The notes: a model not told the origin generated them from the letters alone. A stretch of DNA of 32,000 nucleotides from Trichlorobacter lovleyi SZ (GCF_000020385.1 NC_010814.1:1-32000); one strand, 5' to 3'; numbered from the stretch's first letter, positions 6,573-28,254 are shown. Made by a program: numbers and translations.

Positions 6573-6590
6573 ACATTAGTTTATTTTAAT

Positions 6591-6844: not shown

Positions 6845-6868
6845 AAAACCAGAAGCAGGAGGGTCGCC

Positions 6869-10477: not shown

Positions 10478-10611
10478 CCCTGTCTCTGCGGGCTACATGC
10501 AAATGGGGTTAATTACATGAAGCCCAATGACAATAATAACAGTGGCCCATTTCCCCAAAGCGTCTTTCCACCCAGCGTCTTTCCCCGAAGGATTTTCCCC
10601 TGGATGGGGGA

Positions 10612-10780
10612 CGACGAGACTACTGAAGACAAAGACGATGAAAACTCAAAGGTCTCTCAAGGCTCGTCGATCAGATCAGAATAAACCAAGTTGATTATAC
10701 GACATAAAGCCACTACCAAAACCTATCGCCAGCTCAACATACTGATCCTCCAGATCTGCTAAAAAGAAAGAATGCGGTTC
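10612..10780 (+). repeat. Direct repeat copy A (about 170 bp, with weaker similarity continuing to about 10825)
   Basis: It aligns by hand with 27871-28040 with about 19 differences. Copy A covers the 3' end of a 55-codon ORF (10517-10684, ...DETTEDKDDENSKVSQGSSIRSE) plus about 100 bp downstream. Confidence 0.8.
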
Positions 10781-10813
10781 AATTTGCTCGGCAGTTTATG
10801 ACCGAGTGCCTTT

Positions 10814-11815: not shown

Positions 11816-11830
11816 AAGTACTCCTCGCCC

Positions 11831-12718: not shown

Positions 12719-12767
12719 GGGTTCCTCCTGTATCACAGTCTGAATGGTTTCATCTTAGAAAAACAAA

Positions 12768-12787
12768 GCGACGGGTGCTGTCGTTTG
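12768..12787 (+). promoter_or_regulatory. Conserved element copy 1: GCGACGGGTGCTGTCGTTTG
   Basis: One of six co-oriented GCGACA-N5-TGTCGTTT sites. It lies 49 nt upstream of the Z2 start (12718). Confidence 0.6.
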
Positions 12788-12878
12788 AAAATCTGTTTTG
12801 CAGGCGTTCCTGAATAAAGACCGCATCAAGAACGCTGGCCAGGCCTCTAGATTCGCCAGGCATCAGGCAATACAAAGC

Positions 12879-13751: not shown

Positions 13752-13806
13752 ATGTATGCCCCCTGACTTACATCATTTGTAACGGTGGTCAGGGTAGTCG
13801 ATATAT

Positions 13807-13827
13807 GCGACAATGACTGTCGCTTTA
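13807..13827 (+). promoter_or_regulatory. Conserved element copy 2: GCGACAATGACTGTCGCTTTA (perfect 6+5+6 palindrome)
   Basis: It lies 55 nt upstream of the Z1 start (13751), in the divergent spacer shared with the DUF2779 gene. Confidence 0.6.
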
Positions 13828-13872
13828 AAATGTTAGTGGTAGCAGTACATCATCCTGACAAACGGAGCTGCC

Positions 13873-15354
13873 ATGAAAAAATCTGCCATCCCCGGTCTCA
13901 GCAAGTCCCGCTATCTTAATGGTCTGCAGTGTCCTAAATATCTCTGGCTTGCAACCTGGCGCAAAGAGCTGAGAAATGAATTTGATGAAACAACTGAAGA
14001 GATACTGGCCCAAGGGCATCAGGTAGGAGACATTGCCCAGGAGCTGTTTCCTGGTGGTGTGGAGATCCCCTATGATGGGCTGAGTATTGATGAGCAGCTG
14101 CAGCAGACGCAGAATGTGCTCAAGCAGAGCAAGGTCATCTATGAGGCCTCGTTTGAGTACAATGGTGTCTTTGTCAAGGCAGACATCCTGCGTAAGGGGC
14201 GCGGAGGCTGGGAGCTGTATGAGGTTAAAAGTTCAAGTAAGCTAAAAGACACCTATTACGATGACCTGGCAGTGCAGTACCATGTCATTACCAATGCCGG
14301 TATCAAGATAACCAAGGCGCATCTGATCCACATCAACACCTCATACCAGCGCAAAGGCAAGCTTGATCCTCACCAGTTATTTACCATTGTTGATCTGACC
14401 GAAGGTGTCCTGGAAATGCAACCTGCAGTCAAAAAGCAGATTGCAACCTTGAAGAAGATGCTTGCCGGAGCAGAGCCGATTGTTCAGATTGGCCCGCATT
14501 GTGAAGACCCGTATGAATGTGCGTTTAGCGAGCATTGCTGGCAGGATGTACCGGATGAAGGATCGGTTTTTGACCTTGCCGGTAACGGTGCGGACTGCTT
14601 CAAGCTCTATCATGAGGGGATCACAAAGCTCAAGGACATCCCGCTTGACCGCGTAAAGGGCAAGCAACGCCAGCAGGTAGAGGCTGCCAAAAAGAAGCAG
14701 ACCATTGTCAACAAAGAGGGACTGCAGGAGTTTATGGACAGTCTCTGGTATCCACTCTGCTATCTTGATTTTGAGACCTTCATGGAGGCTGTTCCATCCT
14801 ATGATGGGCAACGTCCCTACCAGCAAATGCCGTTTCAGTTCTCGCTGCATATCCAGAAAAAGCCAGGTGGTAAGGTATACCATCATGAATATCTGGCACC
14901 ACCTGCTATAGACCCGCGCAAGGAGTTTCTGGATGAGCTGCTGAAGGTATTGCCGGATGACGGATGTATCATGGTGTACTACAAACCGTTTGAGCAGAGT
15001 CGGCTTAAAGAACTGGCAGAACTTTACCCACGTAAGAAAAAGCAGATACAGCAGTTGATTGACAATATGGTTGATCTGCTGGATCCGTTCAAGGCACGGC
15101 ACCTCTATTCATGGAAACAGCAGGGCTCACACTCGATTAAGGCAGTGTTGCCAGCCTTTGTGAAGGACTTGAGTTATGATGAGCTGGAGATTAGTAACGG
15201 TAGTGCAGCCATGCAGGCATACCATAGCATGTGTGCTTCGGTTGAGAGCCCCAGAAAACTGGCTACACTCAGGAAACAGTTGTTGGCCTATTGCAAGCAG
15301 GATACGCTGGCGATGGTTAGGTTGCTTGAAGTGATATCTGAAAGGGCAAGATAG
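13873..15354 (+). CDS. DUF2779-type protein: N-terminal Cas4/RecB-like PD-(D/E)XK nuclease with a Cys cluster plus a C-terminal DEDD/RNase H-like domain
   Basis: 493 aa. The N-terminus LSKSRYLNGLQCPKYLWL is the family hallmark. Other motifs are ADIL...ELYEVKSS (D..ExK), CEDPYECAFSEHC (Fe-S-type cysteines), CYLDFET (DEDD-like) and a C-terminal YCKQDTLAMV. Confidence 0.7.
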   Translation: MKKSAIPGLSKSRYLNGLQCPKYLWLATWRKELRNEFDETTEEILAQGHQVGDIAQELFPGGVEIPYDGLSIDEQLQQTQNVLKQSKVIYEASFEYNGVFVKADILRKGRGGWELYEVKSSSKLKDTYYDDLAVQYHVITNAGIKITKAHLIHINTSYQRKGKLDPHQLFTIVDLTEGVLEMQPAVKKQIATLKKMLAGAEPIVQIGPHCEDPYECAFSEHCWQDVPDEGSVFDLAGNGADCFKLYHEGITKLKDIPLDRVKGKQRQQVEAAKKKQTIVNKEGLQEFMDSLWYPLCYLDFETFMEAVPSYDGQRPYQQMPFQFSLHIQKKPGGKVYHHEYLAPPAIDPRKEFLDELLKVLPDDGCIMVYYKPFEQSRLKELAELYPRKKKQIQQLIDNMVDLLDPFKARHLYSWKQQGSHSIKAVLPAFVKDLSYDELEISNGSAAMQAYHSMCASVESPRKLATLRKQLLAYCKQDTLAMVRLLEVISERAR

Positions 15355-15387
15355 CAGCCACTTTTTCAATACAAGGGAGCGTATGTC

Positions 15388-16017
15388 GTGGGCACAACCG
15401 TAATCATTGAAGAGAAGGCGTTTTTGGGGGTCTTGTTGGCAGCAGTTGAGGCGTTTCCCGGCAGGTTTTATGGTGAGCGCAAGCCCAAAGGTGCAACTGC
15501 AGAGGGAGAGGTGCATGGCCTCCTGTTTGGGCAAAGGATTCAGCGAAATGATGGGGATGTTGTCTTCAATGTGACCCTGACTGTGCCAAACCAGATAGTG
15601 CTGGAACGAACGCATGACGGAATTTCCGTTGCTGCAAAGCATATCAATAAAATCAGGGAGGCAATAGAATTATTCCCGGCGTACAGCCTGCTGGGGTTTT
15701 TCCACAGCCATCCATATCCGGCGGATGAATTCAAAAAATGCAGCTCAGTTGAACCGTCAGAAACTGACAGGGATAGTGCTATCAGTTCTGCAGAGCAGGA
15801 AGAGGAGGAGATGCTTGACCTGATTTTTAGCATTACAAGGCTAAAGAGGCCCACATGGATATTGCCGCAATTCCCGAAACCTTATTTAATTCATGCCAGT
15901 TGCGGCGTTTACAAGTATACGCTGGCCTGCTATAGTGCCGTAACCTCTGAGCATGAGGAGTCCTACGGGGCGGTTGACAATCTGATTTGTACTACGGCGG
16001 CAGGGTTGCAGGCATAA
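15388..16017 (+). CDS. JAB/MPN (JAMM) metallopeptidase-domain protein
   Basis: GTG start with an AGGGAG RBS. The JAMM pattern is EVHGLLFG ... GFFHSHPYP...SSVEPSETD (E, HxH, SxxD). Confidence 0.65.
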   Translation: MGTTVIIEEKAFLGVLLAAVEAFPGRFYGERKPKGATAEGEVHGLLFGQRIQRNDGDVVFNVTLTVPNQIVLERTHDGISVAAKHINKIREAIELFPAYSLLGFFHSHPYPADEFKKCSSVEPSETDRDSAISSAEQEEEEMLDLIFSITRLKRPTWILPQFPKPYLIHASCGVYKYTLACYSAVTSEHEESYGAVDNLICTTAAGLQA

Positions 16018-16040
16018 ATTGCGCTTGAACTGGAGGGATA

Positions 16041-16379
16041 ATGCGTACAGTCGAACCTATTTTTAAAGTTAAAACAGGTGATTATAAAAAAATGGAAGAA
16101 ACATTAAAAAGGACTATTGGACAATATATTAGGCATTCAAAAGAATGTAAAATTGGCATTACTAATGATCCTTATGTCAGATGGAATAGCTATATCTCTG
16201 CAAATACCAGATATAATGAAATGATAGTTTTTTATAAGACTTCATCATATTCATATATTTGTGAAGTAGAGAAGTATTTAATAGATCATGCAAAAGACTA
16301 CGTAGACAATCAGAGAGGTGGCGGTGCCGGTATAAAAGATTGCCATAATGATTATTTTGCATATATTGTAAGACTGTAA
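16041..16379 (+). CDS. Small protein, tentatively GIY-YIG/T5orf172-like
   Basis: 112 aa with a GGAGGG RBS. The segment CKIGITNDPYVRWNSY ... EVEKYLIDH resembles the YIGxTxxxxxR ... E core. The gene is markedly AT-rich compared with its neighbours. The assignment is weak. Confidence 0.35.
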   Translation: MRTVEPIFKVKTGDYKKMEETLKRTIGQYIRHSKECKIGITNDPYVRWNSYISANTRYNEMIVFYKTSSYSYICEVEKYLIDHAKDYVDNQRGGGAGIKDCHNDYFAYIVRL

Positions 16380-16414
16380 TTACTTATTACTACACAATCA
16401 ATTGGAGGCTTAAA

Positions 16415-16651
16415 ATGGCACACGAGGTAAGTATCAACCTTCATACTAAAGTTGTCGCACATAAAGACCTTGAAATAGAAATTAAAACCATTTCAGACAA
16501 AAAAACAACTAAACTCGGTACGTTACTCATAAGTAAAGGAAACTTAGAGTGGCTGCCTGCAGGATGTTCAGTCAACAAAAAACAAATGACTTGGACTAAA
16601 TTTGCTGAACTAATGGAAATTAATGGCAAATCTTCAAAAGCGAAACAGTGA
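16415..16651 (+). CDS. Small hypothetical protein (78 aa)
   Basis: GGAGG RBS, and the same AT-rich composition as the preceding gene. No family recognised. Confidence 0.5.
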   Translation: MAHEVSINLHTKVVAHKDLEIEIKTISDKKTTKLGTLLISKGNLEWLPAGCSVNKKQMTWTKFAELMEINGKSSKAKQ

Positions 16652-16741
16652 ATGTATCTTGAATGTGTTTCGGTAATTCAAGGATATAGCGTTTAACATA
16701 TTGATCTCCATTTTTCTTCCTGATTTTCTAAAAAATATCAA

Positions 16742-16786
16742 CAATCTATGCAATTTGTCAATAAGATTGATAAATTGCATAGATTG
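16742..16786 (-). terminator. 21-bp inverted repeat (20/21 match, 3-nt loop), a possible bidirectional or minus-strand terminator
   Basis: CAATCTATGCAATTTGTCAAT-aag-ATTGATAAATTGCATAGATTG. In the minus sense it is followed by TTGATATTTTTTAG. It lies between the convergent plus-strand and minus-strand gene blocks. Confidence 0.4.
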
Positions 16787-16985
16787 GCCTGTATCACCCT
16801 TTCCATGATCTCCCGCATGGCTGAACAAATAATCCGCACCTGCTAAAGGCTTCCCGGTTATAACACTGTGAATCGGCATGCAATATTGACCCACTTTCGG
16901 GTGTAATCGGCGTCCAAAATTGACCCACCTCAGCACCTCCTCCATTCTCTTTGGCATCATCCAGAGAGAGGAGCTTTGAAAGGAG

Positions 16986-18500
16986 ATGCTGCTAGTGGAA
17001 TCCATCCGTAAAATCCGCCAGGCTTACCACCGGGACAAGAAACCAATCAGGCAGATAGCCCGTGAGTTTCATCTGTCTAAGAACACCGTCAAGAAAATCA
17101 TCAGAAGTGACGTAACCGATCAGGTTTATACCCGCACCGAACAGCCCAGGCCAAAGCTTGCTGCATTTGAAGAACGTCTCAAAGGACTGTTGTCTGAAGA
17201 TGCCGTAAAGCCAGTCCGCCATCGTCGTAGTGCCCAGTTATTGTTTGAGACGCTACAGCGGGAAGGATTTGAAGGTGGCTATGACAGCGTCCGTCGTTAC
17301 ATCCAGCAGCAGCGCAAAGAGACCGGCGGCGGCGTAGCCGCAGCCTTTATTCCGCTATCCTTTGATCCTGGTGAGGCATTTCAGTTTGACTGGAGCTATG
17401 AGCAGATTGAGTTGGGTGGGATCATCGTAAAGGTCAAGATTGCTCAGTTTCGCCTCTGTAACAGTCGGATGCCATTTTGCGTGGCCTACACACGTGAGAG
17501 CCTGGAGATGGTTCTGGATGCTCATATCAAGGCATTCAGCTTCTTTGGTGGTGCCTGTCGGCGTGGTATCTACGACAACCTAAAAACCGTAGTAACCAAA
17601 GTCCTGATGGGCAAGGATCGTGTATTCAATCGTCGGTTTTTGAGTCTGGCCTCCCACTACCTGTTTGAACCGATAGCCTGCACTCCTGCTGCAGGCTGGG
17701 AGAAGGGGCAGGTAGAGAATCAGGTAGGCCTTGTGCGCAAGCGTTTCTTCGCCAAACGGCGGACATTTACCAACCTTTCTGAGCTAAACCAGTGGCTGCA
17801 GGAACAATGTCTGGACTACGCAGCAACCCAGAAACATCCTGACAACCCACTCCTGACGATCAATGACCTGTTTAAGGAGGAACGCCGGCAGCTTCTCACG
17901 GTAACGGTTCCGTTTGACGGTTATCTGGAAAGCGATGCCAAGGTATCTTCTACCTCCCTGGTCTCATTTGACCGCAACCGTTACAGCGTCCATGTCTCTG
18001 CTGTTGGCAACCCGGTCACGGTACGGGCCTATGCTGATCGTCTGACCTTTGTCCAGAGCGGCAGAACCGTAGGATTCCACAAACGGCACTTTGGTCGTGA
18101 TCAGGTCTTCTATGATCCCTGGCACTATCTGGAGGCACTGAAGAAGAAGCCGGGAGCACTCAGAAACGGTGCACCGTTTAAGGAATGGAATTTGCCGGAA
18201 TCTATTGAGCAAATCCGTAGTGCCCTTGCCAAGCACCGTGATGGTGACCGGCAGTTTGTCGGGATACTGGCGGTTGTCTCCTACTATGGCATTGAAGCAG
18301 TAACACAGGCATGCACTGATGCATTGGCAGCCAATACCATCAGTCGGGATGTCGTGCTTAATCTGTTGTCCCGAAACGATGAAGAACCGACACCAACGGC
18401 AGATCCTGCAGCAAAACTGCCGGTTTTGATCATACCGCCTGTAGCTGACTGCAGGCGGTATGACCTGCTGCTTGCCGGAGGTGCCTGTGCTACTGCGTGA
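16986..18500 (+). CDS. istA: IS21-family transposase IstA
   Basis: 504 aa. N-terminal HTH ([18 protein letters not shown]) and a DDE integrase core (FQFDWS..., [20 protein letters not shown]). Confidence 0.93.
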
Positions 18501-19224
18501 GAAACTGCAAAAGGCCATGGAGACCCTTGGGCTGCATGGCATGAAGACTGCCTGTGACGAGCTGATCGCCACAGGCATCAAACAACGGGCCACACCGGAG
18601 AAGATCCTGTTTGAGCTGCTTAATGCAGAGCTGGCTGAACGGAGAATCAGAAGTATCCGCTACCGCCTGAGTCAGGCAAGGTTTCCAGTAGAGAAGGACC
18701 TGGATCACTTTGAGTTTACGGATACACCGATCAACGAGACACAGGTCAGAATGCTGTATGAGGGAGGCTTTCTTACTGAAAAGAGTAATATCATTCTGGT
18801 AGGTGGAACCGGTACCGGCAAGACCCATCTGGCCATTGCCATTGCACGGCAGGTGATCAGAAACGGTAAGCGTGGCCGATACTTCAACCTGCTGGATCTG
18901 GTCAACCAACTAGAACAGGAAAAGCTAAGCGGACGCGGAGGAAAGCTTGCAGAGGCACTCTGCAGGCTTGATCTGGTTGTGCTGGACGAACTGGGCTATC
19001 TGCCGTTCTCAAAGGCTGGAGGACAGCTGCTGTTTCACCTTATATCAAAGCTGTACGAGAGAACATCGCTTATCATTACCACTAACCTGACCTTTGGAGA
19101 ATGGCCGCAGGTGTTCGGTGATGGCAAAATGACCACGGCACTTCTGGACAGGGTTACCCATCACTGCGAAATCGTCGAAACAGGAAATGAAAGCTGGAGA
19201 ATCAAAACCAGAAACTCAGACTAA
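18460..19224 (+). CDS. istB: IS21-family helper ATPase IstB
   Basis: AAA+ motifs are [13 protein letters not shown] (Walker A) and LVVLDELGY (Walker B). The more likely start is GTG 18487, preceded by GGAGG. Confidence 0.92.
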
Positions 19225-19290
19225 AATCAACCGCTGAGGTGGGTCAATTTTGGACGCCGATGGTGGGTCAAATTTCAATGCCGATTGACA

Positions 19291-19611
19291 GTCTGCGTTT
19301 TTGTGAGGCTTCAACATGACATCCTGCATGCCTGATAGCAGCTCAAGCTTATCATCAAGGTCGCAGAGTTTTTTGTTCAGCTTAACCAAGCCGGTGCTGA
19401 CCAAAGGGCTTTCTGGTTGGAGTGCCCGATGGAACTCACCCTCTTTAATGCCGGTCAGGTGTGCCAGCAGTTTACAGAGTGAGTCGGTAGTTGTCTTTTG
19501 TGTTCTAGGTGCAATGGCAGAACGGAATTCAGTAAAGATGCTCAGGCCTGCTGCAAAGGTGAAAACAGCCTGATCTGCCTCAGTTAGCTGGTCGTGATTT
19601 GTGAAACATCC
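19291..19611 (-). pseudogene. Gene fragment trapped between the IS21 and IS3 insertions (possible 3' part of the last operon gene)
   Basis: Only one minus-strand frame is open across the whole interval: ...GCFTNHDQLTEADQAVFTFAAGLSIFTEFRSAIAPRTQKTTTDSLCKLLAHLTGIKEGEFHRALQPESPLVSTGLVKLNKKLCDLDDKLELLSGMQDVMLKPHKNAD. There is no start codon of its own. I could not verify frame continuity with 20832-21214. Confidence 0.3.
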
Positions 19612-19658
19612 TGATGGGTAGAATAAGCAATATACCGATCTGGTTGTCGTTTCTGGCC

Positions 19659-20486
19659 TCAGGCTGCCAGCTTCAGTCTTTGGTAATACGCCTCATCCGG
19701 TGTCTGCTTGTCAAGTGATGTATGCTTTCTGCCGTTGTTGTACCAGTTGAACCAGTCTGTCAGGTCTTTGAAAAGCTCAGTTCCGGTCTCGTAGGTTCTA
19801 AGGTAGATCCTCTCGTATTTGAGGGTACGCCAGAGCCGTTCAATGAAGATGTTGTCCTTGAAACGGCCTTTGCCATCCATGCTGATCCTAACGTTCCACT
19901 GTTTCAGCACTGAGGTGAATGCCTCGCTGGTGAACTGGCACCCCTGGTCGCTGTTGAATATCTCGGGGGCTCCGTATTTGAACAGTGCCTCCTTGAGTGC
20001 TTCGACACAGAAGCGGGTGTCAAGCGTGTTGGACAGGCGCCAAGAGAGCACCTTTCTGGTGCCCCAGTCCATGATGGCAACCAGGTACATGAAGCCTCTG
20101 GCCATCGGAATGTAGGTGATGTCGGTTGCCCACACCTGATTGGGACGGTCAATGGTTAGTCCCCGCAGCAGATATGGGTAAACCGGATGCTTGGGATGCC
20201 GCTTGCTGGTTCCCGGCTTGGGCGACAGAGACTGGATGCCCATCAGCAGCATCAGACGGCGAACCCGGTCACGGCCTACCGGCTCTTCTGGTATTGTCAG
20301 ATGATCTGCCAAAGAGCGACTTCCCATCCAGGGATGCTGCAGATAGAGTTCGTCGATCCGCCGCATGAGTGCAAGATCACCGGAACGAAGGCCGGATGCC
20401 GGACCACGGTAGTAGCTGGCTCTCGCTACCCCGAGCAGTTCACATCTGCGTTCGACAGAAACATCAGGATGGCCGGTAGCGATCAC
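19659..20486 (-). CDS. IS3-family transposase OrfB (DDE integrase core), expressed as an OrfAB fusion
   Basis: WATDITYI, AIMDWGTRKV, FNSDQGCQFTS and ERLWRTLKYE are the DD(35)E region motifs. Confidence 0.92.
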   Translation of the reverse strand: MIATGHPDVSVERRCELLGVARASYYRGPASGLRSGDLALMRRIDELYLQHPWMGSRSLADHLTIPEEPVGRDRVRRLMLLMGIQSLSPKPGTSKRHPKHPVYPYLLRGLTIDRPNQVWATDITYIPMARGFMYLVAIMDWGTRKVLSWRLSNTLDTRFCVEALKEALFKYGAPEIFNSDQGCQFTSEAFTSVLKQWNVRISMDGKGRFKDNIFIERLWRTLKYERIYLRTYETGTELFKDLTDWFNWYNNGRKHTSLDKQTPDEAYYQRLKLAA

Positions 20487-20788
20487 TTTCTGTTTCTGCG
20501 CCCGGTCAAGCTCAGACCGGGCAGATTGGACAAAAAATCGTTTTCCGCCTTGAGCTTGCCGATGACGCGGTGCAGCTCGGCTACTTCGGCGTCGTGATTG
20601 ACCTCTTGCTTCTTCCCTTTGCCGAAGAGGTCTGAGGCGTTTTCAACGAGTTCCTGTTTCCAGTTGCTGATCTGGCTTGGGTGAACTTTGTACTCGCTGG
20701 CGAGCTCGGCCAGCGTCTTGGATTCGGTTAAAGCTGCCAAGGCTACCTTGGCCTTAAATTCTGAACTGTAACGGGTGCGGTGCTGCAT
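20483..20788 (-). CDS. IS3-family transposase OrfA (HTH)
   Basis: 101 aa. YSSEFKAKVALAAL..KTLAELASEYKVHPSQISNWK, followed by a leucine-zipper-like end. Confidence 0.9.
   Translation of the reverse strand: MQHRTRYSSEFKAKVALAALTESKTLAELASEYKVHPSQISNWKQELVENASDLFGKGKKQEVNHDAEVAELHRVIGKLKAENDFLSNLPGLSLTGRRNRK
20501..20537 (-). other. Programmed -1 ribosomal frameshift signal of the IS3 element
   Basis: In the minus sense, the slippery run T TTT TTG (20531-20537) is followed by the stem-loop CCCGGTC-tgagctt-GACCGGG (20501-20521). The -1 frame reads ...SARSELDRAQKQKVIATGHPD into OrfB. Confidence 0.7.
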
Positions 20789-20831
20789 GGAACCTCTCCT
20801 TTCAAAGGGATCGGCTCATTGCTTATACTCA

Positions 20832-21214
20832 TGTCTCAAAAACCGCAACCACTTCACAGTCAGATTCAACATTCCTGTCAGCAGTTTTATGTTTCTAAAA
20901 AATGGGAGTGAATCTGAAAGCTTCTTTTTGGCAAGCTTCTGGCGTTGGCGGACAAGCAGTTTCATACAATGCCCGGCTGTTACGCGTTCAGGCTGCTCCT
21001 CATGGTCTGTATCAAGGGCAGTCATGGCGCAGAAGTCGGAATCCTCGAATATATCCGGCCAGCGTCTGGGGTGACTGGGGCGATGCCAACCGAAGTAGAG
21101 TATGATGTCGATCAGCCAGACTCCAAAAAGCGGGGTATATTTTACATTTTCTCCAGGCCGTTTGCAGCATGTTAGGCTATTTGCTGCTGAGTGAGAAAGG
21201 AATGAAAGTGACAT
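20832..21214 (-). pseudogene. 5' part of the last gene of the WYL-regulated operon (gene X), truncated by the IS3 insertion
   Basis: The start is reassigned to ATG 21214 (MSLSFLSH...), which has GGGAGG 8 nt upstream and conserved element copy 3 48 nt upstream. No family recognised. Confidence 0.35.
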
Positions 21215-21262
21215 GGCTTCTGCCTCCCAACGATAGTGTTGGGTACAGAATGCCACAGAGTG

Positions 21263-21283
21263 GCGACAAGTTGTGTCGTTTTA
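21263..21283 (+). promoter_or_regulatory. Conserved element copy 3: GCGACAAGTTGTGTCGTTTTA
   Basis: It overlaps the MBL gene stop codon and lies 48 nt upstream of ATG 21214. Confidence 0.6.
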
Positions 21284-22549
21284 CAGATTATTGCTACCGA
21301 GATCGTATTCAGTCCCGTCGTTAACCATCAGACAGTTGCCAAAATAAAACTCATAATCTGCAGGGAATTCAGTGTGAACAGGAACCAATTGGCGTGGCTT
21401 AACTGCTTTGACAAGGCGTTGCAGATCTTCAACCGGGGCGTGACCGCTGGTGTGGGCATAGACATACCGAACACCCGGGCGCACTTCATCCTTAATTGAA
21501 CGCATGACTTGGGTATGTATGGCTTCTTCCGGCTTGGGAGCTAGATACCCCTGCCACTGAGAGTAGATCACCGTTGTGGGCTCTTCCTCGCATGCAAATT
21601 TAAATATTAAGCTGGCTGACGATACTTTTAGCAGCATAAGATACTTGGCCGGATGTGTTCGCAGCTCGCCTCCTTTAATTCTGTTTGAAACAGCCTGATT
21701 TATAAAGTCACCGAACATCCCTCGGTTTGCCGGGTCAAACAGAACTGACGACTTCCTCTTATCAAATACCACGCCTATAGAATCCCAGTCGATGGTTGGC
21801 GTACCTTGGGAAACTTGTCGTACCTGCTCCAAAACCCAAGCTGAATAGATATCCAGTACCAGGGTTTTGCCAGTGAATTTGCATGCACGGTAAGCAGAGA
21901 CAATACGATCTATATTCTGTGAAGAAGAAATAAGGAAAGAAATGTTGCGCTGCTTTCTGAGGATGTTTGCAATTTCAGTTTCCACTGATTTTTCATCAGA
22001 AAAGCTGCTGTTATCACGCTGCAGCATGGTGCCTTCCATCAGCATTAGATCTATATTTTGAGGAGGTTTATTGAGCAGCTTTTCAAACAGTACAGACTTG
22101 CGGCCATGGCCCCGGAAGTCCCCTGTATAGAATAAACGCTTCCCTTCGGCTTCGACAATAAATCCGTAGGCATCTGTTGCGGAATGGTCCATCAGATAGG
22201 GGGTGATTGTAATATCCCCGACACTGAAAGGTAGCCAAGCATCAATGGTTCTAAAATCGTTTGCTAATAGCGGGTGTCCCAAGAATAATCTGGTGGCGTT
22301 GAGCAAACCTTTGGCAACTTTGCCTATGTATACCGGCATGGATGAGGGTATCGTGTCAAGCAGTCCACAGTGATCTTGGTGAGAGTGGCTGATTATCAGC
22401 GCATCAGCCGCCAGATCAGCTTCGGTCAGCGGTTGGCTATTAGCTGCCAAGGGAAGACCTGCATCCAGCAGGATACTGATTGTCTCTGTACTGATACGGA
22501 TACAGGTTCCACCTATTTCATGGCTGCCACGGTGGATGGTGAACTTCAT
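21281..22549 (-). CDS. Metallo-beta-lactamase fold nuclease of the beta-CASP type
   Basis: 422 aa. Motifs are LLDAG, ISHSHQDHCG (HxHxDH), MDHSATDAYG, YTGDFRGHG and a C-terminal YAHTSGHAPVEDLQRLVKAVKPRQLVPVHTE (beta-CASP motif C pattern). Confidence 0.8.
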   Translation of the reverse strand: MKFTIHRGSHEIGGTCIRISTETISILLDAGLPLAANSQPLTEADLAADALIISHSHQDHCGLLDTIPSSMPVYIGKVAKGLLNATRLFLGHPLLANDFRTIDAWLPFSVGDITITPYLMDHSATDAYGFIVEAEGKRLFYTGDFRGHGRKSVLFEKLLNKPPQNIDLMLMEGTMLQRDNSSFSDEKSVETEIANILRKQRNISFLISSSQNIDRIVSAYRACKFTGKTLVLDIYSAWVLEQVRQVSQGTPTIDWDSIGVVFDKRKSSVLFDPANRGMFGDFINQAVSNRIKGGELRTHPAKYLMLLKVSSASLIFKFACEEEPTTVIYSQWQGYLAPKPEEAIHTQVMRSIKDEVRPGVRYVYAHTSGHAPVEDLQRLVKAVKPRQLVPVHTEFPADYEFYFGNCLMVNDGTEYDLGSNNL

Positions 22550-22580
22550 AAAACTGTGTCGTCCTTGATATCAGCTTGTC

Positions 22581-23522
22581 TCAGTTCAAGCTGTTCCTGA
22601 ACAGGGGGGATGCACCATATTCGCCTAAAACTTTATTTGCAGCGTTTTCGAGATCCGCAACTTTTTGAAGGTTTTCGACTCCCTGAACCAGAAACAAGGC
22701 TTTAAACTCGATATCAACATTCTCTTGCGGTGCCGCCACACCGGGTAACAGGCCTAACTCAATTTTTTCCCTTAGAATGTTACGAACAGATTCTTTAAAA
22801 GCTCTACGGGCATCTTTATCATTTCCCCCCGAGATAAACTGCTTTAAATCTTCAGCATGTTCTGCTACGCCTGCCTTGCCATCAACAGCTCCCAGGCCCT
22901 GTTTAAACTCAATCAGGTACACAGTAAGAGGTCCAGCGGCATGCAATTCGGTTCGTTCTAATGCGATCATATCAAAACGGCAGAGCCTGCGGCCAGCCGT
23001 CCGTTTGTCGCGACTTCTTTCGCCATGCAGCCAGACAGCATATTCAATATCCAGAATGATCCAGTGAGATGATGGATTCCGAGTGGATTCAGATGCAAGT
23101 TTATGTTGTAGTTCCCGTTCTGTTTTATTGTTGCCATCCTTAAACCAGTCATTCATCACATTTTTCAGCTTCGGGAAGCATTTAACCCAAGATGATGCGT
23201 CCCTAGGTATTTCTTTGAGCCAAGCAGCATCAACCTCCCATTCATCCTTACCTTTCCTCTTGTAGTAGTTTGGATCAAAGCTGAAGTTGATCTGTCTGCC
23301 GCGGAAGCTGCTGATTTTGAGCAGGCTTCCCCCCTTATAGTAGATATTCACATAGCCATCACGAATTTGGAGATCGAGATCGAGATCAGGATCATTTTTT
23401 ACAGCTTCAACAATCACACGTAGTTGTTCCTGGTGTTTTGGGGATACTCTGTCAAATTGAATTCCCCGGATTTTAGGCTTAACTGGCGGTTCTTTGCTCA
23501 AATTGGTCGTAGTGTCGTCCAT
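22581..23522 (-). CDS. Predicted PD-(D/E)XK-like nuclease-fold protein (family not recognised)
   Basis: 313 aa. The candidate catalytic pattern is ERELQHKL ... ILDIEY ... RFDMIAL ... VYLIEFKQG (E / D / ExK). The call rests on motifs only. Confidence 0.45.
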   Translation of the reverse strand: MDDTTTNLSKEPPVKPKIRGIQFDRVSPKHQEQLRVIVEAVKNDPDLDLDLQIRDGYVNIYYKGGSLLKISSFRGRQINFSFDPNYYKRKGKDEWEVDAAWLKEIPRDASSWVKCFPKLKNVMNDWFKDGNNKTERELQHKLASESTRNPSSHWIILDIEYAVWLHGERSRDKRTAGRRLCRFDMIALERTELHAAGPLTVYLIEFKQGLGAVDGKAGVAEHAEDLKQFISGGNDKDARRAFKESVRNILREKIELGLLPGVAAPQENVDIEFKALFLVQGVENLQKVADLENAANKVLGEYGASPLFRNSLN

Positions 23523-23531
23523 AAGATTCTC

Positions 23532-25043
23532 CTATAATTCACAATCAGCAAGATAACGGCTATTAGCCGCCGTGAACCTTTTAACTTCATCTTGGTCGCC
23601 GATCGCTTTCCACTCCTCTAAAATCCTATCCAAACTGTATGGTTCATGCGCCGCCAACAATTCCGCTCGCTTAAGGCATTTTTTTGCCGACTCGATGTCA
23701 TTAAAGTCTTCACGCCATATCTGGGCTAGCCATATCATTTCTCCGTCTGCCGCATCAGGTATAGCATCAGATCGGAGCAGGACGTTTCTTGCTCGTTCTC
23801 GTTCATTGAACTCTATCCAGCATTTTGCTAACTGGATAAGGTTAATAACCGCCCCCAAATTGGTATGTTCAACATGTTCTTCAGCAATTAACAGACACCT
23901 GCGAGCTTCGTCCTTGTCCTTAATTTTATCCTTCCAGAAATCCACGCAGGCACTCCAGGCGGTAAAGTCTTCCGCACGTTTTTCAGCTTCTCGTAGGCAT
24001 CGGATTGACTCCCTCCCGGATTTGTCGACAATCATCCAGTTCTCTGCACATGTAAGCCAATCCCACGCCCGCTCTGCCTGTTTCTCCGCTTCTCCTGGGT
24101 TAATCCTTAGCCATCCCTCTTCTGCAAGCTTGCGTAGTTGCCGACGCGGGTGGCCAAGTAGCACTTTTAGCTTCTTTGCATGATGGGGCTCAACCTTGTT
24201 GTGAAAAAACAGATCATCATTCAATGACGCATATCCTTTTTCGATCTGTACCTCTAATTGTGTGACTGTTTCAGTGAATGCATCGTCTTTGCTGAAGACG
24301 GTGTTCAGCCTCGACAACAGACGAGGAATCAGTTTTCGAGATTTCTTTGCCTCAAGGCACTCGTCAAAAAAATCAAGCATTGAATTAAGCATCTCTGAGT
24401 TGCTATTTTTATCGTCCATCTCGGCACAACAAGTATGGTTATGAGCTTCGGCCCGCTCTATTGCTTTTCTCATCGAGTCATCAAGCAGAAAAATATCTTG
24501 GCACGAAAGCTCTTCAATTGCCTTTACCTGCTCATCAGTAAATGTGCCGACTTTGGTATTGCCCTTGAGAGAAGAGGCTATTTCAATGACACTCCTTACA
24601 ACATACATTGGCCAAGAGGATGCAAGTACCTTATCTACCTTGTTTCCATATTCTTCCGTTATAATTACCGGAGCACATCCATTTTCATCAATAATTGTCG
24701 AGTCCAACGCCGTTGTGATTGGGGCGCCTGGGTAGCCGATATAGATCCTTTTCCAGCTGTCTTGCGGGTCATCACTAGAAACGGTACGACCATCGCATTC
24801 CATCAACTCAAATATTGAGACAATCTCCAGCGTCCCTTCGAGAAACTCGATAAGGCCTGAACCGTGTAGGGTCAACCAGTAGCGGTAGTCCGGAGGTACG
24901 ATCTTATTTTGTTTCTGCTCATACTGTGAAATCTGCTCCTCGGAAACAGGAACCAGCTTGGTATAGGTAATAAGTGGCCGAGCTTGTTCTAAAAACTCCC
25001 ACGCAATCTTGGTTTGCTTTATTACAACATCAGAATATTCCAT
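23532..25043 (-). CDS. SUKH (SMI1/KNR4)-like N-terminal domain fused to Trp-rich TPR/Sel1-like helical repeats
   Basis: 503 aa. IVPPDYRYWLTLHGSGLIEF matches the SUKH LPxDYxxFL..xNG signature. The C-terminal half has repeated A.xxxxxAxxW-type helical units (AERAWDWL, FTAWSACVDFW, LAKCWIEF, LAQIWRED, ILEEWKAI). Confidence 0.55.
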   Translation of the reverse strand: MEYSDVVIKQTKIAWEFLEQARPLITYTKLVPVSEEQISQYEQKQNKIVPPDYRYWLTLHGSGLIEFLEGTLEIVSIFELMECDGRTVSSDDPQDSWKRIYIGYPGAPITTALDSTIIDENGCAPVIITEEYGNKVDKVLASSWPMYVVRSVIEIASSLKGNTKVGTFTDEQVKAIEELSCQDIFLLDDSMRKAIERAEAHNHTCCAEMDDKNSNSEMLNSMLDFFDECLEAKKSRKLIPRLLSRLNTVFSKDDAFTETVTQLEVQIEKGYASLNDDLFFHNKVEPHHAKKLKVLLGHPRRQLRKLAEEGWLRINPGEAEKQAERAWDWLTCAENWMIVDKSGRESIRCLREAEKRAEDFTAWSACVDFWKDKIKDKDEARRCLLIAEEHVEHTNLGAVINLIQLAKCWIEFNERERARNVLLRSDAIPDAADGEMIWLAQIWREDFNDIESAKKCLKRAELLAAHEPYSLDRILEEWKAIGDQDEVKRFTAANSRYLADCEL

Positions 25044-25099
25044 TGCCCCGCCCCCTGGTTGTCATGTGATACGGAAATTTGCCCGGATTAGCGCGAAAT

Positions 25100-26098
25100 T
25101 TATCCAGGTCTATACATCTTGGCATAAGCATCTGCGAGCTCGACATACTCCTGTCGCAGAGAGGCCGGAGCCAGAACCTCCACCCTGCTACCAAAGCCAT
25201 TGAGCCACCAGCGTAGTTGCAGGGTATCTTCCACGGTTGCGGTAAGTTCGTGTCCATCAGCAGTTGCATGTATCTTCTGATTCGCTGCCAATGGAGACTC
25301 TTCAAGCCGCTGCATATCAACCTTGTGACTAAAACGAACTTTCAATCGAATACTACTGCCAACCGGAAACGTCAAAAGCTCTTGCACCCACGCATCCAGA
25401 TCAAAGTCCTCCGGCACGGTGACCGGTTTGTCCAGCAGGTCAATCGTCTGGAACCGGTGCAGCAGCAGCAGGATCGGTTCAACATGCTGGTTGATGGAGG
25501 CGATCAGGTAGGTCAAGCCATCAACAAAGGTCATGCCCAGAGGATTTACCTCTTCGTATGTTTTTGACTTGCCAGATACGGTTGTGTAGGTGGCTTTGAA
25601 GCGTTGTTCCTCCAACAGGGCGGTGTACGCCTTTTCAGTGATTTCCTCTGATATTGTTGGTGGAATGGTCGTCAGGCTGCGGGATAGGACCCTGACCTTA
25701 TTTGGCCAGGCAGCCAGCTTTGGATCAACAGCAGATTTTAAGCGTTGCTCTGCGGTTTTTTGATAGGGGATTAATGCTGAGAGTATGCCTTTCGGGAACA
25801 TCTTTTCCAGATACTGGCTGGCAAGGGTAAAGGTGAGGGCTGTAACCGGATCCATGTTGGGCATGTCAAAGTTTGCAGCATCATCAGTCCATTTCCAGCC
25901 CGATGGTTTTCTTCCGTCACTTGCAATCGGAAAGAGCGCTTCCAGTTCAATCAGATCCCGCTGGATAGTACGCAGGGTAGTTTCAATGCCGTCTTCATGT
26001 TTGAGTCGACTGCAGATCTCAACTGTCGAAATACCGGTTCCCCTCCTGGGGATCATGCGCAGGATTAGCCAGTGGCGATAGAGAGTACTCATGCTCAT
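25100..26098 (-). CDS. WYL-domain transcriptional regulator (wHTH-WYL-WCX architecture, BrxR/CapW-like class)
   Basis: N-terminal wHTH (LYRHWLILRMIP..GISTVEICSRL.....LRTIQRDLIELE), a central WYL-type beta domain (YEEVNPLGMTFVDGLTYLIA) and a C-terminal WCX-like LQLRWWLNGFGSRVEVLAPASLR. The more likely start is ATG 26092, based on GGAG spacing. Confidence 0.8.
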   Translation of the reverse strand: MSMSTLYRHWLILRMIPRRGTGISTVEICSRLKHEDGIETTLRTIQRDLIELEALFPIASDGRKPSGWKWTDDAANFDMPNMDPVTALTFTLASQYLEKMFPKGILSALIPYQKTAEQRLKSAVDPKLAAWPNKVRVLSRSLTTIPPTISEEITEKAYTALLEEQRFKATYTTVSGKSKTYEEVNPLGMTFVDGLTYLIASINQHVEPILLLLHRFQTIDLLDKPVTVPEDFDLDAWVQELLTFPVGSSIRLKVRFSHKVDMQRLEESPLAANQKIHATADGHELTATVEDTLQLRWWLNGFGSRVEVLAPASLRQEYVELADAYAKMYRPG

Positions 26099-26120
26099 TG
26101 CTCCATCATATGGGAGATAT

Positions 26121-26140
26121 GCGACAACTGCTGTCGTTTA
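26121..26140 (+). promoter_or_regulatory. Conserved element copy 4: GCGACAACTGCTGTCGTTTA
   Basis: It lies 22-28 nt upstream of the WYL gene start. In the minus sense it is directly preceded by TTGCCT-N16-TATGAT, a good -35/-10 pair. Confidence 0.65.
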
Positions 26141-26202
26141 TCATAGCAGTGTTTTGGCATGAGGCAATACATAGGAACCGAACTACCAACAGGGGACAAA
26201 GA

Positions 26203-26230
26203 GCTGGCACGCTCTTGCGAGCGTGCCAGC
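26203..26230 (-). terminator. Rho-independent terminator after the acidic-tail gene
   Basis: A perfect 12-bp stem, GCTGGCACGCTC-ttgc-GAGCGTGCCAGC. In the minus sense it is followed by TCTTTGT. It begins 8 nt after the stop at 26238. Confidence 0.75.
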
Positions 26231-26237
26231 AGGATTG

Positions 26238-26609
26238 TTAGAATGAATCATCATCTTCCTGGTGATCATCTCCAGAATCATCAAGCTCATCCTCATCAAT
26301 CTCCAGATCTTCGTCATCTTCAAAATCAGGCAGGTGCTGCTCAACCAGTCGTGCCGGTACGCTTCGGGCATGGGAGAGATCTTGTTGGCGTGCCACAAGC
26401 AAGAACGAGTCGCAGACAACCAGCAGCATCTCCATGTCACGCAGGTGGCTACCAATCTGATTGAGGTAGGAGGGAGTCAGTTTGGGTACTCCGGCAATAC
26501 TCCGTAACTCCGGCCAACCGAGCTGAAACTGCTCATAGCTGTCATTGGCAAAACTCTCGTCGTAAATTTCTGATAGTACCTGTGCTGTCTCTTGTGCGGT
26601 GCGTGCCAT
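26238..26609 (-). CDS. Small protein with an extremely acidic C-terminal tail ending DDDSF
   Basis: 123 aa with an AGGAGG RBS. The tail is PDFEDDEDLEIDEDELDDSGDDHQEDDDSF. The globular part was not recognised. Confidence 0.6.
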   Translation of the reverse strand: MARTAQETAQVLSEIYDESFANDSYEQFQLGWPELRSIAGVPKLTPSYLNQIGSHLRDMEMLLVVCDSFLLVARQQDLSHARSVPARLVEQHLPDFEDDEDLEIDEDELDDSGDDHQEDDDSF

Positions 26610-26652
26610 GATGGGCCTCCTGTATCGTTATGAGTCCATTCTAGTTGAAGGT

Positions 26653-26673
26653 GACGACAGATTGTGTCGTTTG
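26653..26673 (+). promoter_or_regulatory. Conserved element copy 5: GACGACAGATTGTGTCGTTTG
   Basis: It lies 43 nt upstream of the acidic-tail gene start (26609). Confidence 0.6.
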
Positions 26674-26715
26674 TCGACTTGCCTGGAGATCAACAGATAA
26701 TCAAGATCTTCATAT

Positions 26716-27672
26716 CTAGCAGAGGTTGCTAAAACAAAGCGTATCCGCGTGGAAATTGACAAATACAGTGCCGATAGGCCCATTTTTATGTTTTGCAACA
26801 ATAATTTCAGCCAGGTCTTCATGGTTGTGGACGCATGAACCATCACGACGCCTGCAGGCTTTGCAGTAGACCGACTCCCGGTAGATGAGCAATATGACAT
26901 CGGCATCGTCTTCAAGTGAGCCAGTGTTCCCCAAATCACTCAGTTTTGGCCGGGTCTTCTTTGCCTTTCGCCTGCCTACTGACGAATGCAGTTGGGAAAG
27001 CAGAATAACAGCTACACCAAGCTCTCTGGCTAACACCTTTAACGAACTTGAAATTCGGGATATTTCTGTGGGATCAAGAGCTGACCTGGCATCATCCCGC
27101 ATGAGCTGCAGATAGTCTATGATAATGACCTGTACGTTATGATCAACTTTCAGGCGTATGGCCTTGGCAAGGAGCTCCGTAATACTGATACCTGAAGTGT
27201 CGTCAACATAGATGGCGCTTTTCCGTAAGGTCTCTTTCGCATCATCAAGTTTGCACAGATCTGATTCCGATAAATGTCCGGTTCGTGCCCTGCAGATATC
27301 CACGTGGGCAACCGCTGATAGCAAACGTATGCCCAGTTGTTCCTTTGACAGTTCAAGCGAAAATATTGCTGTGGGAATGGTGTGCTTTAGCCCCACGTTC
27401 ATGGCAATGTTCATAGCTAACGAACTTTTGCCATTTGATGGGCGTGACGCTATGACAGTCAAGGTTCCCGGCTGCAATCCGCATAACATATGGTCAAGGT
27501 CTAGAAACCCCGTTGGATATCCGGTTATAGCTCCAGCATGTTCGTGGGACTGCTGAACCATTTTAAGTGATTCATCGATAAACTCATGCACTGCATAAAT
27601 TGGTTGACCGCTATAGCGGTACACAGGTTTGCATAATGAATTCTGTGCCGATTGATTTTCAAATGATTGCAT
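26716..27672 (-). CDS. DnaB-like helicase, C-terminal RecA-type ATPase domain only
   Basis: 318 aa. GYPTGFLDLDHMLCGLQPGTLTVIASRPSNGKSSLAMNIA (Walker A), VIIIDYLQLM (Walker B), ILLSQLHS...RPKLSDLGNTGSLEDDADVILLIYRE, IVAKHKNGPIG. There is no DnaB N-terminal domain. It carries an extra Cys/His stretch, CKACRRRDGSCVHNH. Confidence 0.8.
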   Translation of the reverse strand: MQSFENQSAQNSLCKPVYRYSGQPIYAVHEFIDESLKMVQQSHEHAGAITGYPTGFLDLDHMLCGLQPGTLTVIASRPSNGKSSLAMNIAMNVGLKHTIPTAIFSLELSKEQLGIRLLSAVAHVDICRARTGHLSESDLCKLDDAKETLRKSAIYVDDTSGISITELLAKAIRLKVDHNVQVIIIDYLQLMRDDARSALDPTEISRISSSLKVLARELGVAVILLSQLHSSVGRRKAKKTRPKLSDLGNTGSLEDDADVILLIYRESVYCKACRRRDGSCVHNHEDLAEIIVAKHKNGPIGTVFVNFHADTLCFSNLC

Positions 27673-27714
27673 AACGCCTCCAGCTGTAGAGTGTGCACAA
27701 GAGTAACCTCATAA

Positions 27715-27735
27715 GGCGTCAGTATGCGTCGTTTG
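27715..27735 (+). promoter_or_regulatory. Conserved element copy 6 (degenerate): GGCGTCAGTATGCGTCGTTTG
   Basis: It has the same spacing and TTTG extension and lies 42 nt upstream of the dnaB-like start. Both half-sites deviate (CGTCA / CGTCG). Confidence 0.4.
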
Positions 27736-27824
27736 TGTAAAGCAGTTGGCAATATGAGCGTATAATTGTTGTTGCGAGGCTTAGGCGTCTAAGAGATAGG
27801 AGGGCTGTGGTTCGTAGATAGGAA

Positions 27825-27846
27825 AATGTCAGTAATTGGGGCCAAT
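27825..27846. repeat. Outlying copy of the transposon-end repeat (AATGTCAGTAATTGGGGCCAAT)
   Basis: TAGGAAAATGTCAGTAATTGGGGCCAATCAGTGAG is nearly identical to 28110-28143 (TAGGAAAATGTCATTAATTGAGGCCAATAAGTAGG). Confidence 0.6.
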
Positions 27847-27870
27847 CAGTGAGTCTGAAACTATTGAGGG

Positions 27871-28040
27871 CGACGAGACTACTGAAGACAAAGACGATGA
27901 AGCCTCAAGGGTTTCTCCTGGCTCGACGATCAGATCAGAATAAGCCAAATTGATTATACGACATAAAGCCACCACCTAAAACCTATCGCCAGTTCGACAG
28001 ACTGGTCCTCCAGATCTCCTAAATGGAAAGAATGGGGTTC
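27871..28040 (+). repeat. Direct repeat copy B (partner of 10612-10780, with weaker similarity continuing to about 28085)
   Basis: See copy A. Copy B is embedded between transposon-end repeats. Confidence 0.8.
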
Positions 28041-28115
28041 TATTGCATGGCAATATATGCTATGTTACAAAGCTTTTTATCCGCAGAGACAATATTTCTA
28101 ATAACTCAGTAGGAA

Positions 28116-28249
28116 AATGTCATTAATTGAGGCCAATAAGTAGGATTTTGGCAGTAATTGGGGCCAAAAGTGTTAATTTATGGGGCCACGGCGAATATAA
28201 CTTATTGAAAATACAATTCCCCCAATGTCATTAATTGGGAACACCTACA
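28116..28249. repeat. Distal (Tn7-L-like) end with at least four putative transposase-binding repeats
   Basis: The repeats are AATGTCATTAATTGAGGCCAAT (28116-28137), TGGCAGTAATTGGGGCCAA (28149-28167), GTGTTAATTTATGGGGCCAC (28170-28189) and AATGTCATTAATTGGGAACACCTACA (28224-28249). Confidence 0.7.
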
Positions 28250-28254
28250 GCACG
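28250..28254. repeat. 5-bp target-site duplication GCACG (right copy)
   Basis: It immediately follows the ...CCTACA terminus and is identical to 6512-6516. Confidence 0.8.

Follow-up and report, generated by a model that had tools for sequence, protein, structure and literature searches.

Regulators of the CapW/BrxR type, which combine a winged helix-turn-helix (wHTH) with WYL and WCX domains, are repressors that release DNA upon binding single-stranded DNA (ssDNA) (PMC11662680; PMC13373217). A WYL-WCX regulator also heads the operon described here, which is located within the first 32,000 nucleotides of the Trichlorobacter lovleyi SZ sequence NC_010814.1 (this whole stretch is referred to below as the window). 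The operon carries, in order, genes for the regulator, a 503-aa protein that joins a SUKH-like domain to tetratricopeptide (TPR)-like repeats, a 313-aa PD-(D/E)XK-like protein, a metallo-beta-lactamase (MBL) nuclease of the beta-CASP type, and a broken fifth gene (gene X). The WYL and WCX domains of its regulator are shared with CapW and BrxR, which control CBASS and BREX, and with DriD/PafBC. As in the CapW and BrxR units, the regulator gene comes first in the unit that it presumably controls, a palindrome lies at its own promoter, and the genes behind it encode potentially toxic enzymes. The operon differs in that its genes belong to neither CBASS nor BREX nor any other named system and in that the N terminus of the regulator has no Pfam helix-turn-helix match.

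The part of the operon with the widest distribution is the pair formed by the 313-aa and MBL genes. A scan of one genome per species yielded 53 loci with the 313-type gene, 50 of them usable, from Clostridia, Erysipelotrichaceae, Coriobacteriales, Bacteroidota, Alpha-, Beta-, and Gammaproteobacteria, Desulfobacterota, Kiritimatiellae, Saccharibacteria, Chloroflexota, Bathyarchaeota, and Crenarchaeota. In about 33 of the 50 loci, the 313-type gene has an MBL homologue as its immediate neighbor, on the same strand and in either order; the stop and start codons of the two often overlap. Clustering of 542 neighboring proteins revealed no further conserved neighbor. The distance matrices of the two proteins are strongly correlated (r = 0.92, a value reached by 0 of 2,000 Mantel permutations), and the two proteins coevolve. 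Between copies from Bathyarchaeota and Crenarchaeota (L062 and L037) and copies from Proteobacteria (Gamma- or Deltaproteobacteria in the comparison with Bathyarchaeota) and Kiritimatiellae (L044, L045, and L065), identity is 57 to 61% for the 313-like protein and 71 to 74% for the MBL, which indicates that the pair has recently moved from one domain of life to another. The 313-like partner and the MBL of one locus (L026) come from different subfamilies, so the modules can evidently be exchanged. Based on the adjacency, the absence of any other conserved neighbor, the coevolution, and the cross-domain identities, the core unit is best described as a mobile two-gene module. The initial annotation had treated all five genes as one module; the operon is real, but only this pair is widely conserved, and the other members are lineage specific.

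Neither the pair nor the operon corresponds to a system described in the libraries and literature searched. PADLOC-DB v2.0, including its PDC candidates, yielded only generic WYL models, with no match to the 503-aa, 313-aa, and MBL proteins and none to their distant relatives; the gene set matches no NCBIfam system, and a literature search found no description of it. The earlier remark that the combination was not recognized as a named defense system agrees with the PADLOC and NCBIfam results. Proteins of the operon are identical to ACD93760 ("hypothetical protein") and ACD93759 ("MBL fold metallo-hydrolase") of Trichlorobacter (Geobacter) lovleyi SZ.

The 313-aa protein, in which an E/D/ExK pattern had been noted, consists of an N-terminal beta-rich domain with the motif IRDGYxNIYYxGG and a C-terminal PD-(D/E)XK-like core (D158/E160, D184, and E205-x-K207). 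Residues D158, E160, R178, D184, E205, and K207 are invariant in an alignment of 22 sequences. In the AlphaFold2 (AF2) model (predicted local distance difference test [pLDDT], 89; predicted template modeling [pTM] score, 0.88), D184 and E205-x-K207 are located on strands E178-189 and E199-208. Foldseek matches of this model are weak (best E value, 0.027 against the PDB and 0.004 against BFVD; TM score, about 0.2 to 0.25), and almost all of them are PD-(D/E)XK proteins. The top matches were BstEII, SduA, MunI, AddB, McrC, and HamA (E of 0.03 or more and TM score of 0.25 or less), joined by viral RecB-like and UL24 proteins. One fused relative of the family matches PDDEXK_9 (E = 8e-4), and the 313-aa protein has no match in Pfam, NCBIfam, PADLOC, or PHROG. 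The pattern first noted is therefore present and invariant, and the protein is weakly predicted to be endonuclease-like with a PD-(D/E)XK fold. Matches to AP-3 adaptor proteins in a PDB search with the 313-aa profile (E of about 1e-3, over a helical stretch) were judged to be spurious.

What the 313-aa protein shares with Shedu (SduA), with HamA of Hachiman, and with restriction endonucleases is a D...ExK core in a predicted restriction-endonuclease-like fold. It differs from this group in having no DUF4263 or other family match, no helicase partner, and a beta-rich N-terminal domain. Close homologues are rare (21 were recovered), and a profile search recovered at least 1,696 representative clusters at 50% identity, 277 of them with E ≤ 1e-30. 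Some members of this partner family (L032 1035-2606, P0206, P0243, P0270, and P0282) carry N-terminal extensions of 150 to 230 aa with no Pfam match; one extension holds an HExxH-like string, HERFH, and P0243 and P0282 end in a CxxC...CxxC tail.

The fourth gene had been assigned to the beta-CASP MBL nucleases, and this assignment holds. Its product matches the Pfam families Lactamase_B_2 (E = 2.5e-18) and RMMBL (E = 5.5e-9), both of the strings first noted, HSHQDH and HTSGHA, occur in it, and 21 homologues keep all beta-CASP motifs unchanged (D29, H55xH57xD59H60, H122, D144, E172/D214, H370, and H392). Like RNase J and CPSF73, it has a His at motif C. Judged by its motifs, the protein is a catalytically complete beta-CASP enzyme. 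The nearest solved structure by profile is EF2904 (2az4; E = 1.5e-37), followed by RNase J, CPSF73, Int11, Cas14, and Apollo. With RNase J, CPSF73, Cas14, and EF2904 it shares invariant MBL motifs 1 to 4 and beta-CASP motifs B and C (His) as well as the RMMBL domain. Enzymes of the RNase J type act as 5'-to-3' exonucleases with a preference for 5'-monophosphate ends.

Membership in three described groups was considered and rejected. The protein scores 57 to 60 bits against the NCBIfam RNase J models (TIGR00649 and NF047419; cutoffs, 400 to 820), over its N-terminal half only. The score against NF058524, the model of the 6A-MBL anti-phage enzyme, is 15 bits versus a cutoff of 220, and the operon has no E1/E2 genes; the score against NF045584, for Cas14 of type VII CRISPR, is 41 versus 800 bits, and the operon has no Cas genes. 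It differs from all three enzymes both in these scores, which are far below the cutoffs, and in its PD-(D/E)XK-like partner; compared with RNase J it is also far shorter (about 415 aa) and lacks the C-terminal domain.

The MBL family has more than 5,500 matches, and it also occurs with other partners. In Acidobacteria, and also on plasmids of Rhizobium and Ochrobactrum, the MBL accompanies a divergent D...ExK protein of about 318 aa. The 313-type and ~318-aa families gave no significant alignment in hhalign; two viral-contig proteins match the hidden Markov models (HMMs) of both, which makes it likely, if unproven, that the two partner types form one superfamily. A 277-aa partner from Butyrivibrio shows no link to either type. 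A small protein of 120 to 150 aa, which matches no family model and has a conserved YPRGRV(V/L)Y motif, is often encoded beside the MBL gene (L007, L016, L019, L060, L079, L080, and L101); it is frequent in the arrangement with the ~318-aa partner and is absent from the window.

The five ORFs (open reading frames) lie on the minus strand, and the tight spacing reported for them was reproduced, with intergenic gaps of 56, 9, 31, and 66 nt. The first encodes the regulator, and its identification as a WYL-WCX protein is confirmed by Pfam matches to the WCX (PF25583; E = 3.2e-16) and WYL (PF13280; E = 2.4e-8; 34.3 bits versus a cutoff of 21.8) domains and by the PADLOC WYL models (E = 1.5e-25). 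At its N terminus there is no Pfam helix-turn-helix match at E ≤ 0.01, and the PADLOC model PDLC01457 aligns to residues 10 to 314. The nearest solved chains (E of about 1e-8) bear the titles "WYL domain-containing protein" and "DeoR-family transcriptional regulator" in their deposits; some of them may be the ssDNA-sensing damage regulator DriD.

The strong hairpin terminator of the upstream 123-aa gene sets the operon off as a transcription unit of its own, and the promoter-like site is followed by the palindrome CGACA-N5-TGTCG, a putative operator to which the regulator would bind. L013, L014, and L007 have the slightly longer form ACGACA-N5-TGTCGT ahead of their WYL genes as well (in two copies in L007), and L016 has a degenerate copy. 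The palindrome lies downstream of the −10 box, a placement that suggests repression of the operon by its own regulator rather than DriD-like activation.

Beyond this operon, a WYL gene is linked to the pair in L007, L013/L014, L016, L057/L058 (Bacteroidota), the Butyrivibrio plasmid pCY186, and the viral contig L094, and a LexA-like S24 protein is found with the pair in L010 and L043. Defense genes are scattered near the pair in other loci (AbiEi, Vsr, IetA, a SIR2 protein, LmuB, viperin, and a CapH-like protein), and family members in one setting adjoin toxin-antitoxin genes.

The second gene had been described as a SUKH-TPR fusion, which the analysis supports, the SUKH domain as a probable one. 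Against SMI1_KNR4 (PF09346) the 503-aa protein itself scores just below the gathering cutoff (23.3 versus 25.4 bits; E = 1e-4; profile positions 1 to 56); 12 of 16 family members match this model at E ≤ 0.01 (best, 2e-5), and an identical protein is named SMI1/KNR4 at NCBI. A PDB sequence search with the SUKH-like N terminus was uninformative. In the AF2 model (pLDDT, 82), an alpha/beta domain at the N terminus is followed by a helical solenoid at the C terminus; residues ~255 to 503 are all helical, and Foldseek assigns them to TPR proteins with a probability of ~1.0. SUKH domains are immunity proteins for nuclease toxins. Like the SUKH immunity proteins of polymorphic toxin systems, this protein has an N-terminal SUKH-1-like domain and is encoded beside a predicted nuclease. 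It differs from them in its fusion to a TPR-like domain of ~250 residues, in the absence of a secreted polymorphic toxin beside its gene, and in its subthreshold Pfam score. There are 17 homologues in all, and as far as the sources name the organisms, they are restricted to Geobacter-like lineages. The gene adjoins the 313-type gene in the window and in L014, and in L012, which has no MBL, the two are separated only by a small zinc-ribbon gene. This arrangement suggests that the SUKH/TPR protein is tied to the PD-(D/E)XK-like protein.

The fifth gene, previously placed in an unrecognized family, could be identified from intact homologous operons. A search for such operons free of the IS (insertion sequence) copies was fruitful: L014 and L015 (83% identity) have the order WYL regulator, 503-aa gene, 311-aa gene, MBL, and a 717-aa double AAA protein. 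The 717-aa homologue matches VCP-like ATPases (E = 6e-26) and the IetA models (E = 6e-35), two classical AAA domains (PF00004) are found in the intact homologues of L014, L007, and L016, and the ATPase matches the phage family phrog_10401 over its full length. Gene X is therefore the start of a gene for a Cdc48/VCP-like double AAA+ ATPase. In tblastn searches with the 717-aa homologue, residues 1 to 119 map to positions 21214 to 20858 (62% identity), and residues ~120 to 217 map to positions 19584 to 19291.

The claim that both an IS3 and an IS21 element struck this gene is upheld by the ends of the fragments, at the 20856/20857 and 19290/19291 junctions. The IS3-family element (orfA, 20483 to 20788; orfB, 19659 to 20486) is a clean insertion flanked by a 4-bp target duplication, ACTG, at 19581 to 19584 and 20857 to 20860; position 20832, with which the initial annotation had begun the region, falls inside this element, whose true boundary is 20856. 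The IS21-family element (istA, 16986 to 18500; istB, 18460 to 19224) has no target duplication. The C-terminal part of the ATPase gives no tblastn match anywhere in the window, and nothing to the left of IS21 continues the gene. Together, these two observations indicate that about 500 codons, including both ATPase domains, were deleted next to IS21, and with these codons missing, the proposed rejoining of gene X from the window is impossible. The copy in the window keeps no more than its N-terminal ~217 residues, a non-ATPase part that lies upstream of the first AAA domain. The four genes upstream of gene X are intact. Four contigs from metagenomes or metagenome-assembled genomes that encode an identical 313-aa protein (L001/L077, L002, L004, and L006) end 129 to 132 codons into gene X, which would be where an assembler breaks at an IS. 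Since all four stop at the IS3 junction, the disrupted allele appears to be common and stable; the suggestion in the initial annotation that the IS hits could reflect toxicity is not supported.

With the pair, the ATPase is found only in loci of the Desulfobacterota type (L007, L014, and L016), and its family has a distribution of its own. On plasmids (L082 to L088), the gene is beside a WYL gene in 5 of 7 loci inspected and ~4 kb away from one in a sixth. The partners there include Sir2 beside BREX-2 genes; PLD with a DEAD helicase; SNF2; an ADP-ribosylglycohydrolase with HEPN and PD-(D/E)XK proteins; RtcB (on a Methylomonas plasmid); and, twice, DUF2779 (with the gene order AAA, DUF2779, WYL, on plasmids of Rhodoferax and Diaphorobacter). 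The ATPase thus belongs to a separate WYL-linked family with interchangeable partners, a family that seems to be a candidate system family by itself. The closest described relatives are Cdc48/VCP and IetA of Gao_Iet (IetA plus IetS), both of which are matched by the intact homologue with its two classical AAA domains. It is distinguished from Gao_Iet in that the similarity to IetA spans a single AAA domain and in that there is no IetS protease; it is distinguished from both in that genes of this family usually neighbor a WYL regulator, and the copy in the window has no ATPase domains.

The coordinates of the operon and of the elements that surround or interrupt it are collected in Table 1.

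Table 1. Features of the operon and its carrier in the T. lovleyi SZ window
Feature	Position	Strand	Remarks
Decayed Tn7-like element	6517..28249	.	21.7 kb; between gyrB and gyrA, near dnaA-dnaN-recF
IS21-family element	~16867..19290	+	From terminal repeats
AAA+ fragment 2 (about codons 120-217)	19291..19584	-	Ends at IS21; tblastn and junction
IS3-family element	19585..20856	-	Clean insertion
AAA+ fragment 1 (codons 1-119)	20857..21214	-	Ends at IS3; tblastn, junction and ACTG
Gene X start	ATG 21214	-	GGGAGG ribosome-binding site ahead of ATG
Beta-CASP MBL nuclease	21281..22549	-	422 aa
PD-(D/E)XK-like protein	22581..23522	-	313 aa; no family model
SUKH-like N terminus plus TPR-like repeat protein	23532..25043	-	503 aa
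WYL-WCX regulator	25100..26098	-	332 aa (330 aa from second ATG)
Palindrome CGACA-N5-TGTCG, putative operator of WYL regulator	26136-26122	-	From sequence
Promoter-like site TTGCCT-16-TATGAT	26167-26140	-	Promoter scan
Hairpin terminator of upstream 123-aa gene	26203..26230	-	Strong; 12-bp stem, 9 G-C pairs; promoter scan

The operon had been proposed to be cargo of a Tn7-like element, and the remains of such an element bear this out. Its ends are terminal inverted repeats, TGTAGGT(T/G)TTCCCAATTA, flanked by a 5-bp target duplication, GCACG, at 6512 to 6516 and 28250 to 28254, and four repeats resembling TnsB sites lie near the right end (27825, 28116, 28147, and 28224). What is left of tnsA is a 126-aa remnant (6869 to 7249; TnsA_N, E = 1e-9) truncated by IS elements. 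There is no intact tnsB, tnsC, or target-selector gene; only an IS5-family (7397 to 8491) and an IS110-family (8837 to 9946) transposase follow the tnsA fragment.

The window contains several further groups of genes. At 10814 to 13751 are an FtsZ/tubulin-like gene (333 aa) and two divergent paralogues of the FtsZ_C-like kind (301 and 290 aa), each of which begins with a signal-like N terminus, MDRRTFLTTMLQG. The same genes adjoin the WYL operon in L013 and L016 and may form a conserved cargo set. The region from 13873 to 16379, convergent to the operon and beyond the IS elements, encodes a DUF2779/Cas4-like nuclease (493 aa; 13873 to 15354), along with JAB-like (209 aa) and GIY-YIG-like (112 aa) proteins, each with a weak match; a DUF2779/Cas4-like gene is near the operon in L016, too. 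Upstream of the operon, at 26238 to 27672, are genes for a helicase consisting only of the DnaB C-terminal domain (318 aa; 71% identical in L016) and for the very acidic 123-aa protein. Both were considered as operon members and rejected, given the terminator between them and the operon and their absence from L013/L014.

The biological role and the mechanism that we infer from these domains, motifs, and neighborhoods are those of a composite, stress-gated nuclease module carried as Tn7-like cargo, most likely for defense against phages or mobile DNA or for abortive infection; we favor this reading, while holding it to be slightly short of an even chance. The WYL-WCX regulator would occupy the palindrome overlapping its own promoter and keep the operon off until ssDNA, arising from DNA damage or from a replicating invader, releases it. 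The PD-(D/E)XK protein would then cut endonucleolytically, and the beta-CASP enzyme would load at the new 5' ends and degrade nucleic acid in the 5'-to-3' direction. The SUKH/TPR protein would most likely restrain the 313-type nuclease, as SUKH immunity proteins do, and the Cdc48-like unfoldase would probably control activation or release. With the unfoldase lost through the IS3 insertion and the IS21-linked deletion, the system in this genome would be either crippled or lacking that layer of control.

Several observations weigh against this reading. The nuclease fold of the 313-aa protein depends on its motifs and on weak Foldseek matches (best E, 0.004 to 0.03), the substrate may be either DNA or RNA, and motif C in the MBL is of the kind that RNA-acting beta-CASP enzymes have. 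The neighborhoods of the pair are heterogeneous and include many metabolic genes, and matches to defense genes are not dominant (149 neighbors). Searches with tblastn found no match for two 313-type queries in 72,556 plasmids and none for the 313-aa protein of the window in 50,697 phage records. The AAA+ gene is broken in this genome, what the SUKH/TPR and AAA+ proteins are proposed to do is purely inferred, and we know of no homologue with an established defense phenotype. DNA damage-type regulators (WYL and LexA-like) would fit repair equally well. The candidate defense or abortive-infection module first proposed is plausible and partly supported, in that the WYL regulator and the Tn7 cargo fit it, but a role in repair or in the life of a mobile element fits that context just as well.

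The same components can be divided differently. The pair would then be an unnamed two-nuclease module for immunity or damage-triggered suicide, present across prokaryotes and exchanged between Archaea and Bacteria, and the AAA+ and WYL proteins a generic control chassis serving a range of effectors (Sir2, PLD, DUF2779, HEPN, and the nuclease pair), with the T. lovleyi operon fusing both and adding the SUKH/TPR protein as an inhibitor. We consider this arrangement conceivable but rather unlikely.

A lower probability still is given to an accessory DNA damage response or repair module, in which a DriD/PafBC-like WYL (or LexA-like) regulator would switch on two nucleases that process damaged ends, cross-links, or stalled forks in the manner of SNM1/Apollo, while the unfoldase strips DNA-bound proteins. 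The nearest solved relatives of the regulator, WYL domain-containing and DeoR-family deposits, would suit this role, as would the reach of the MBL profile search to Apollo. In L010, the pair comes after the LexA-like S24 protein and before a Y-family polymerase gene, and in L013 and on the Ochrobactrum plasmid the module has AddAB-like UvrD and PD-(D/E)XK genes at its flanks. However, the distribution of the pair is patchy, it has moved across domains, it is located on a transposon here, and in most loci it is not linked to core repair genes. Motif C and the RMMBL domain recall RNA-acting members instead, and the position of the putative operator argues for repression and not for activation of the DriD kind.

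It is less probable again that the operon serves its carrier, whether in anti-restriction or establishment, in the exclusion of rival elements, or as an addiction module stabilizing a transposon, conjugative element, or plasmid. Apart from the Tn7-like location itself and the match of the ATPase to phrog_10401, this possibility is consistent with the position of the 313-type and SUKH/TPR genes of L012 beside ArdC, DUF4942, RadC, and integrases and with that of the MBL gene beside ArdA and RadC in Trichlorobacter L017/L018. It is also consistent with copies of the MBL on 11 of 72,556 plasmids, of which the Rhizobium copy adjoins a MobF relaxase and a restriction-modification system, and on 17 of 2.9 million viral contigs, about eight of them with a partner gene. 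These rates are very low, however, and most pair loci are found on long chromosomal contigs and lack mobile-element genes in their vicinity. Moreover, defense systems are equally typical cargo, so that the context does not separate the two readings.

Least probable is an accessory role in RNA processing or repair, with an RNase J-like MBL and an RNA endonuclease partner acting on damaged or foreign RNA: it would account for the "ribonuclease J" label that many family members carry at JGI (Joint Genome Institute), the RMMBL domain and His motif C, the RtcB gene adjoining the AAA+ gene on the Methylomonas plasmid, and the HAD domain of the RNA-repair "Swiss Army Knife" type in three proteins neighboring the pair (presumably from the same genes as a 233-aa family encoded between the pair genes in L046, L048, and L049, as the Pfam summary has no per-locus assignment), but it is opposed by the low RNase J scores, the missing RNase J C-terminal domain, the occurrence of the pair outside a housekeeping context with regulators that respond to DNA damage, and the fact that PD-(D/E)XK enzymes are overwhelmingly DNases.

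The 313-aa/MBL pair is a widespread unnamed module, and the WYL-linked AAA+ family appears to be a second. T. lovleyi SZ is a cultured organism. Since close intact operons exist in metagenomes, these hypotheses are directly testable. If the WYL-linked Cdc48-like ATPase is what it seems, it would be a rare bacterial double-ring unfoldase that controls nucleases or other effectors, paralleling eukaryotic p97/Cdc48. Should the pair act as an effector of immunity or of the damage response, it would be a widespread and as yet unannotated addition to the prokaryotic repertoire: the partner family of the MBL, for which no family model exists, is present in both domains of life and numbers at least 1,696 clusters (50% identity).

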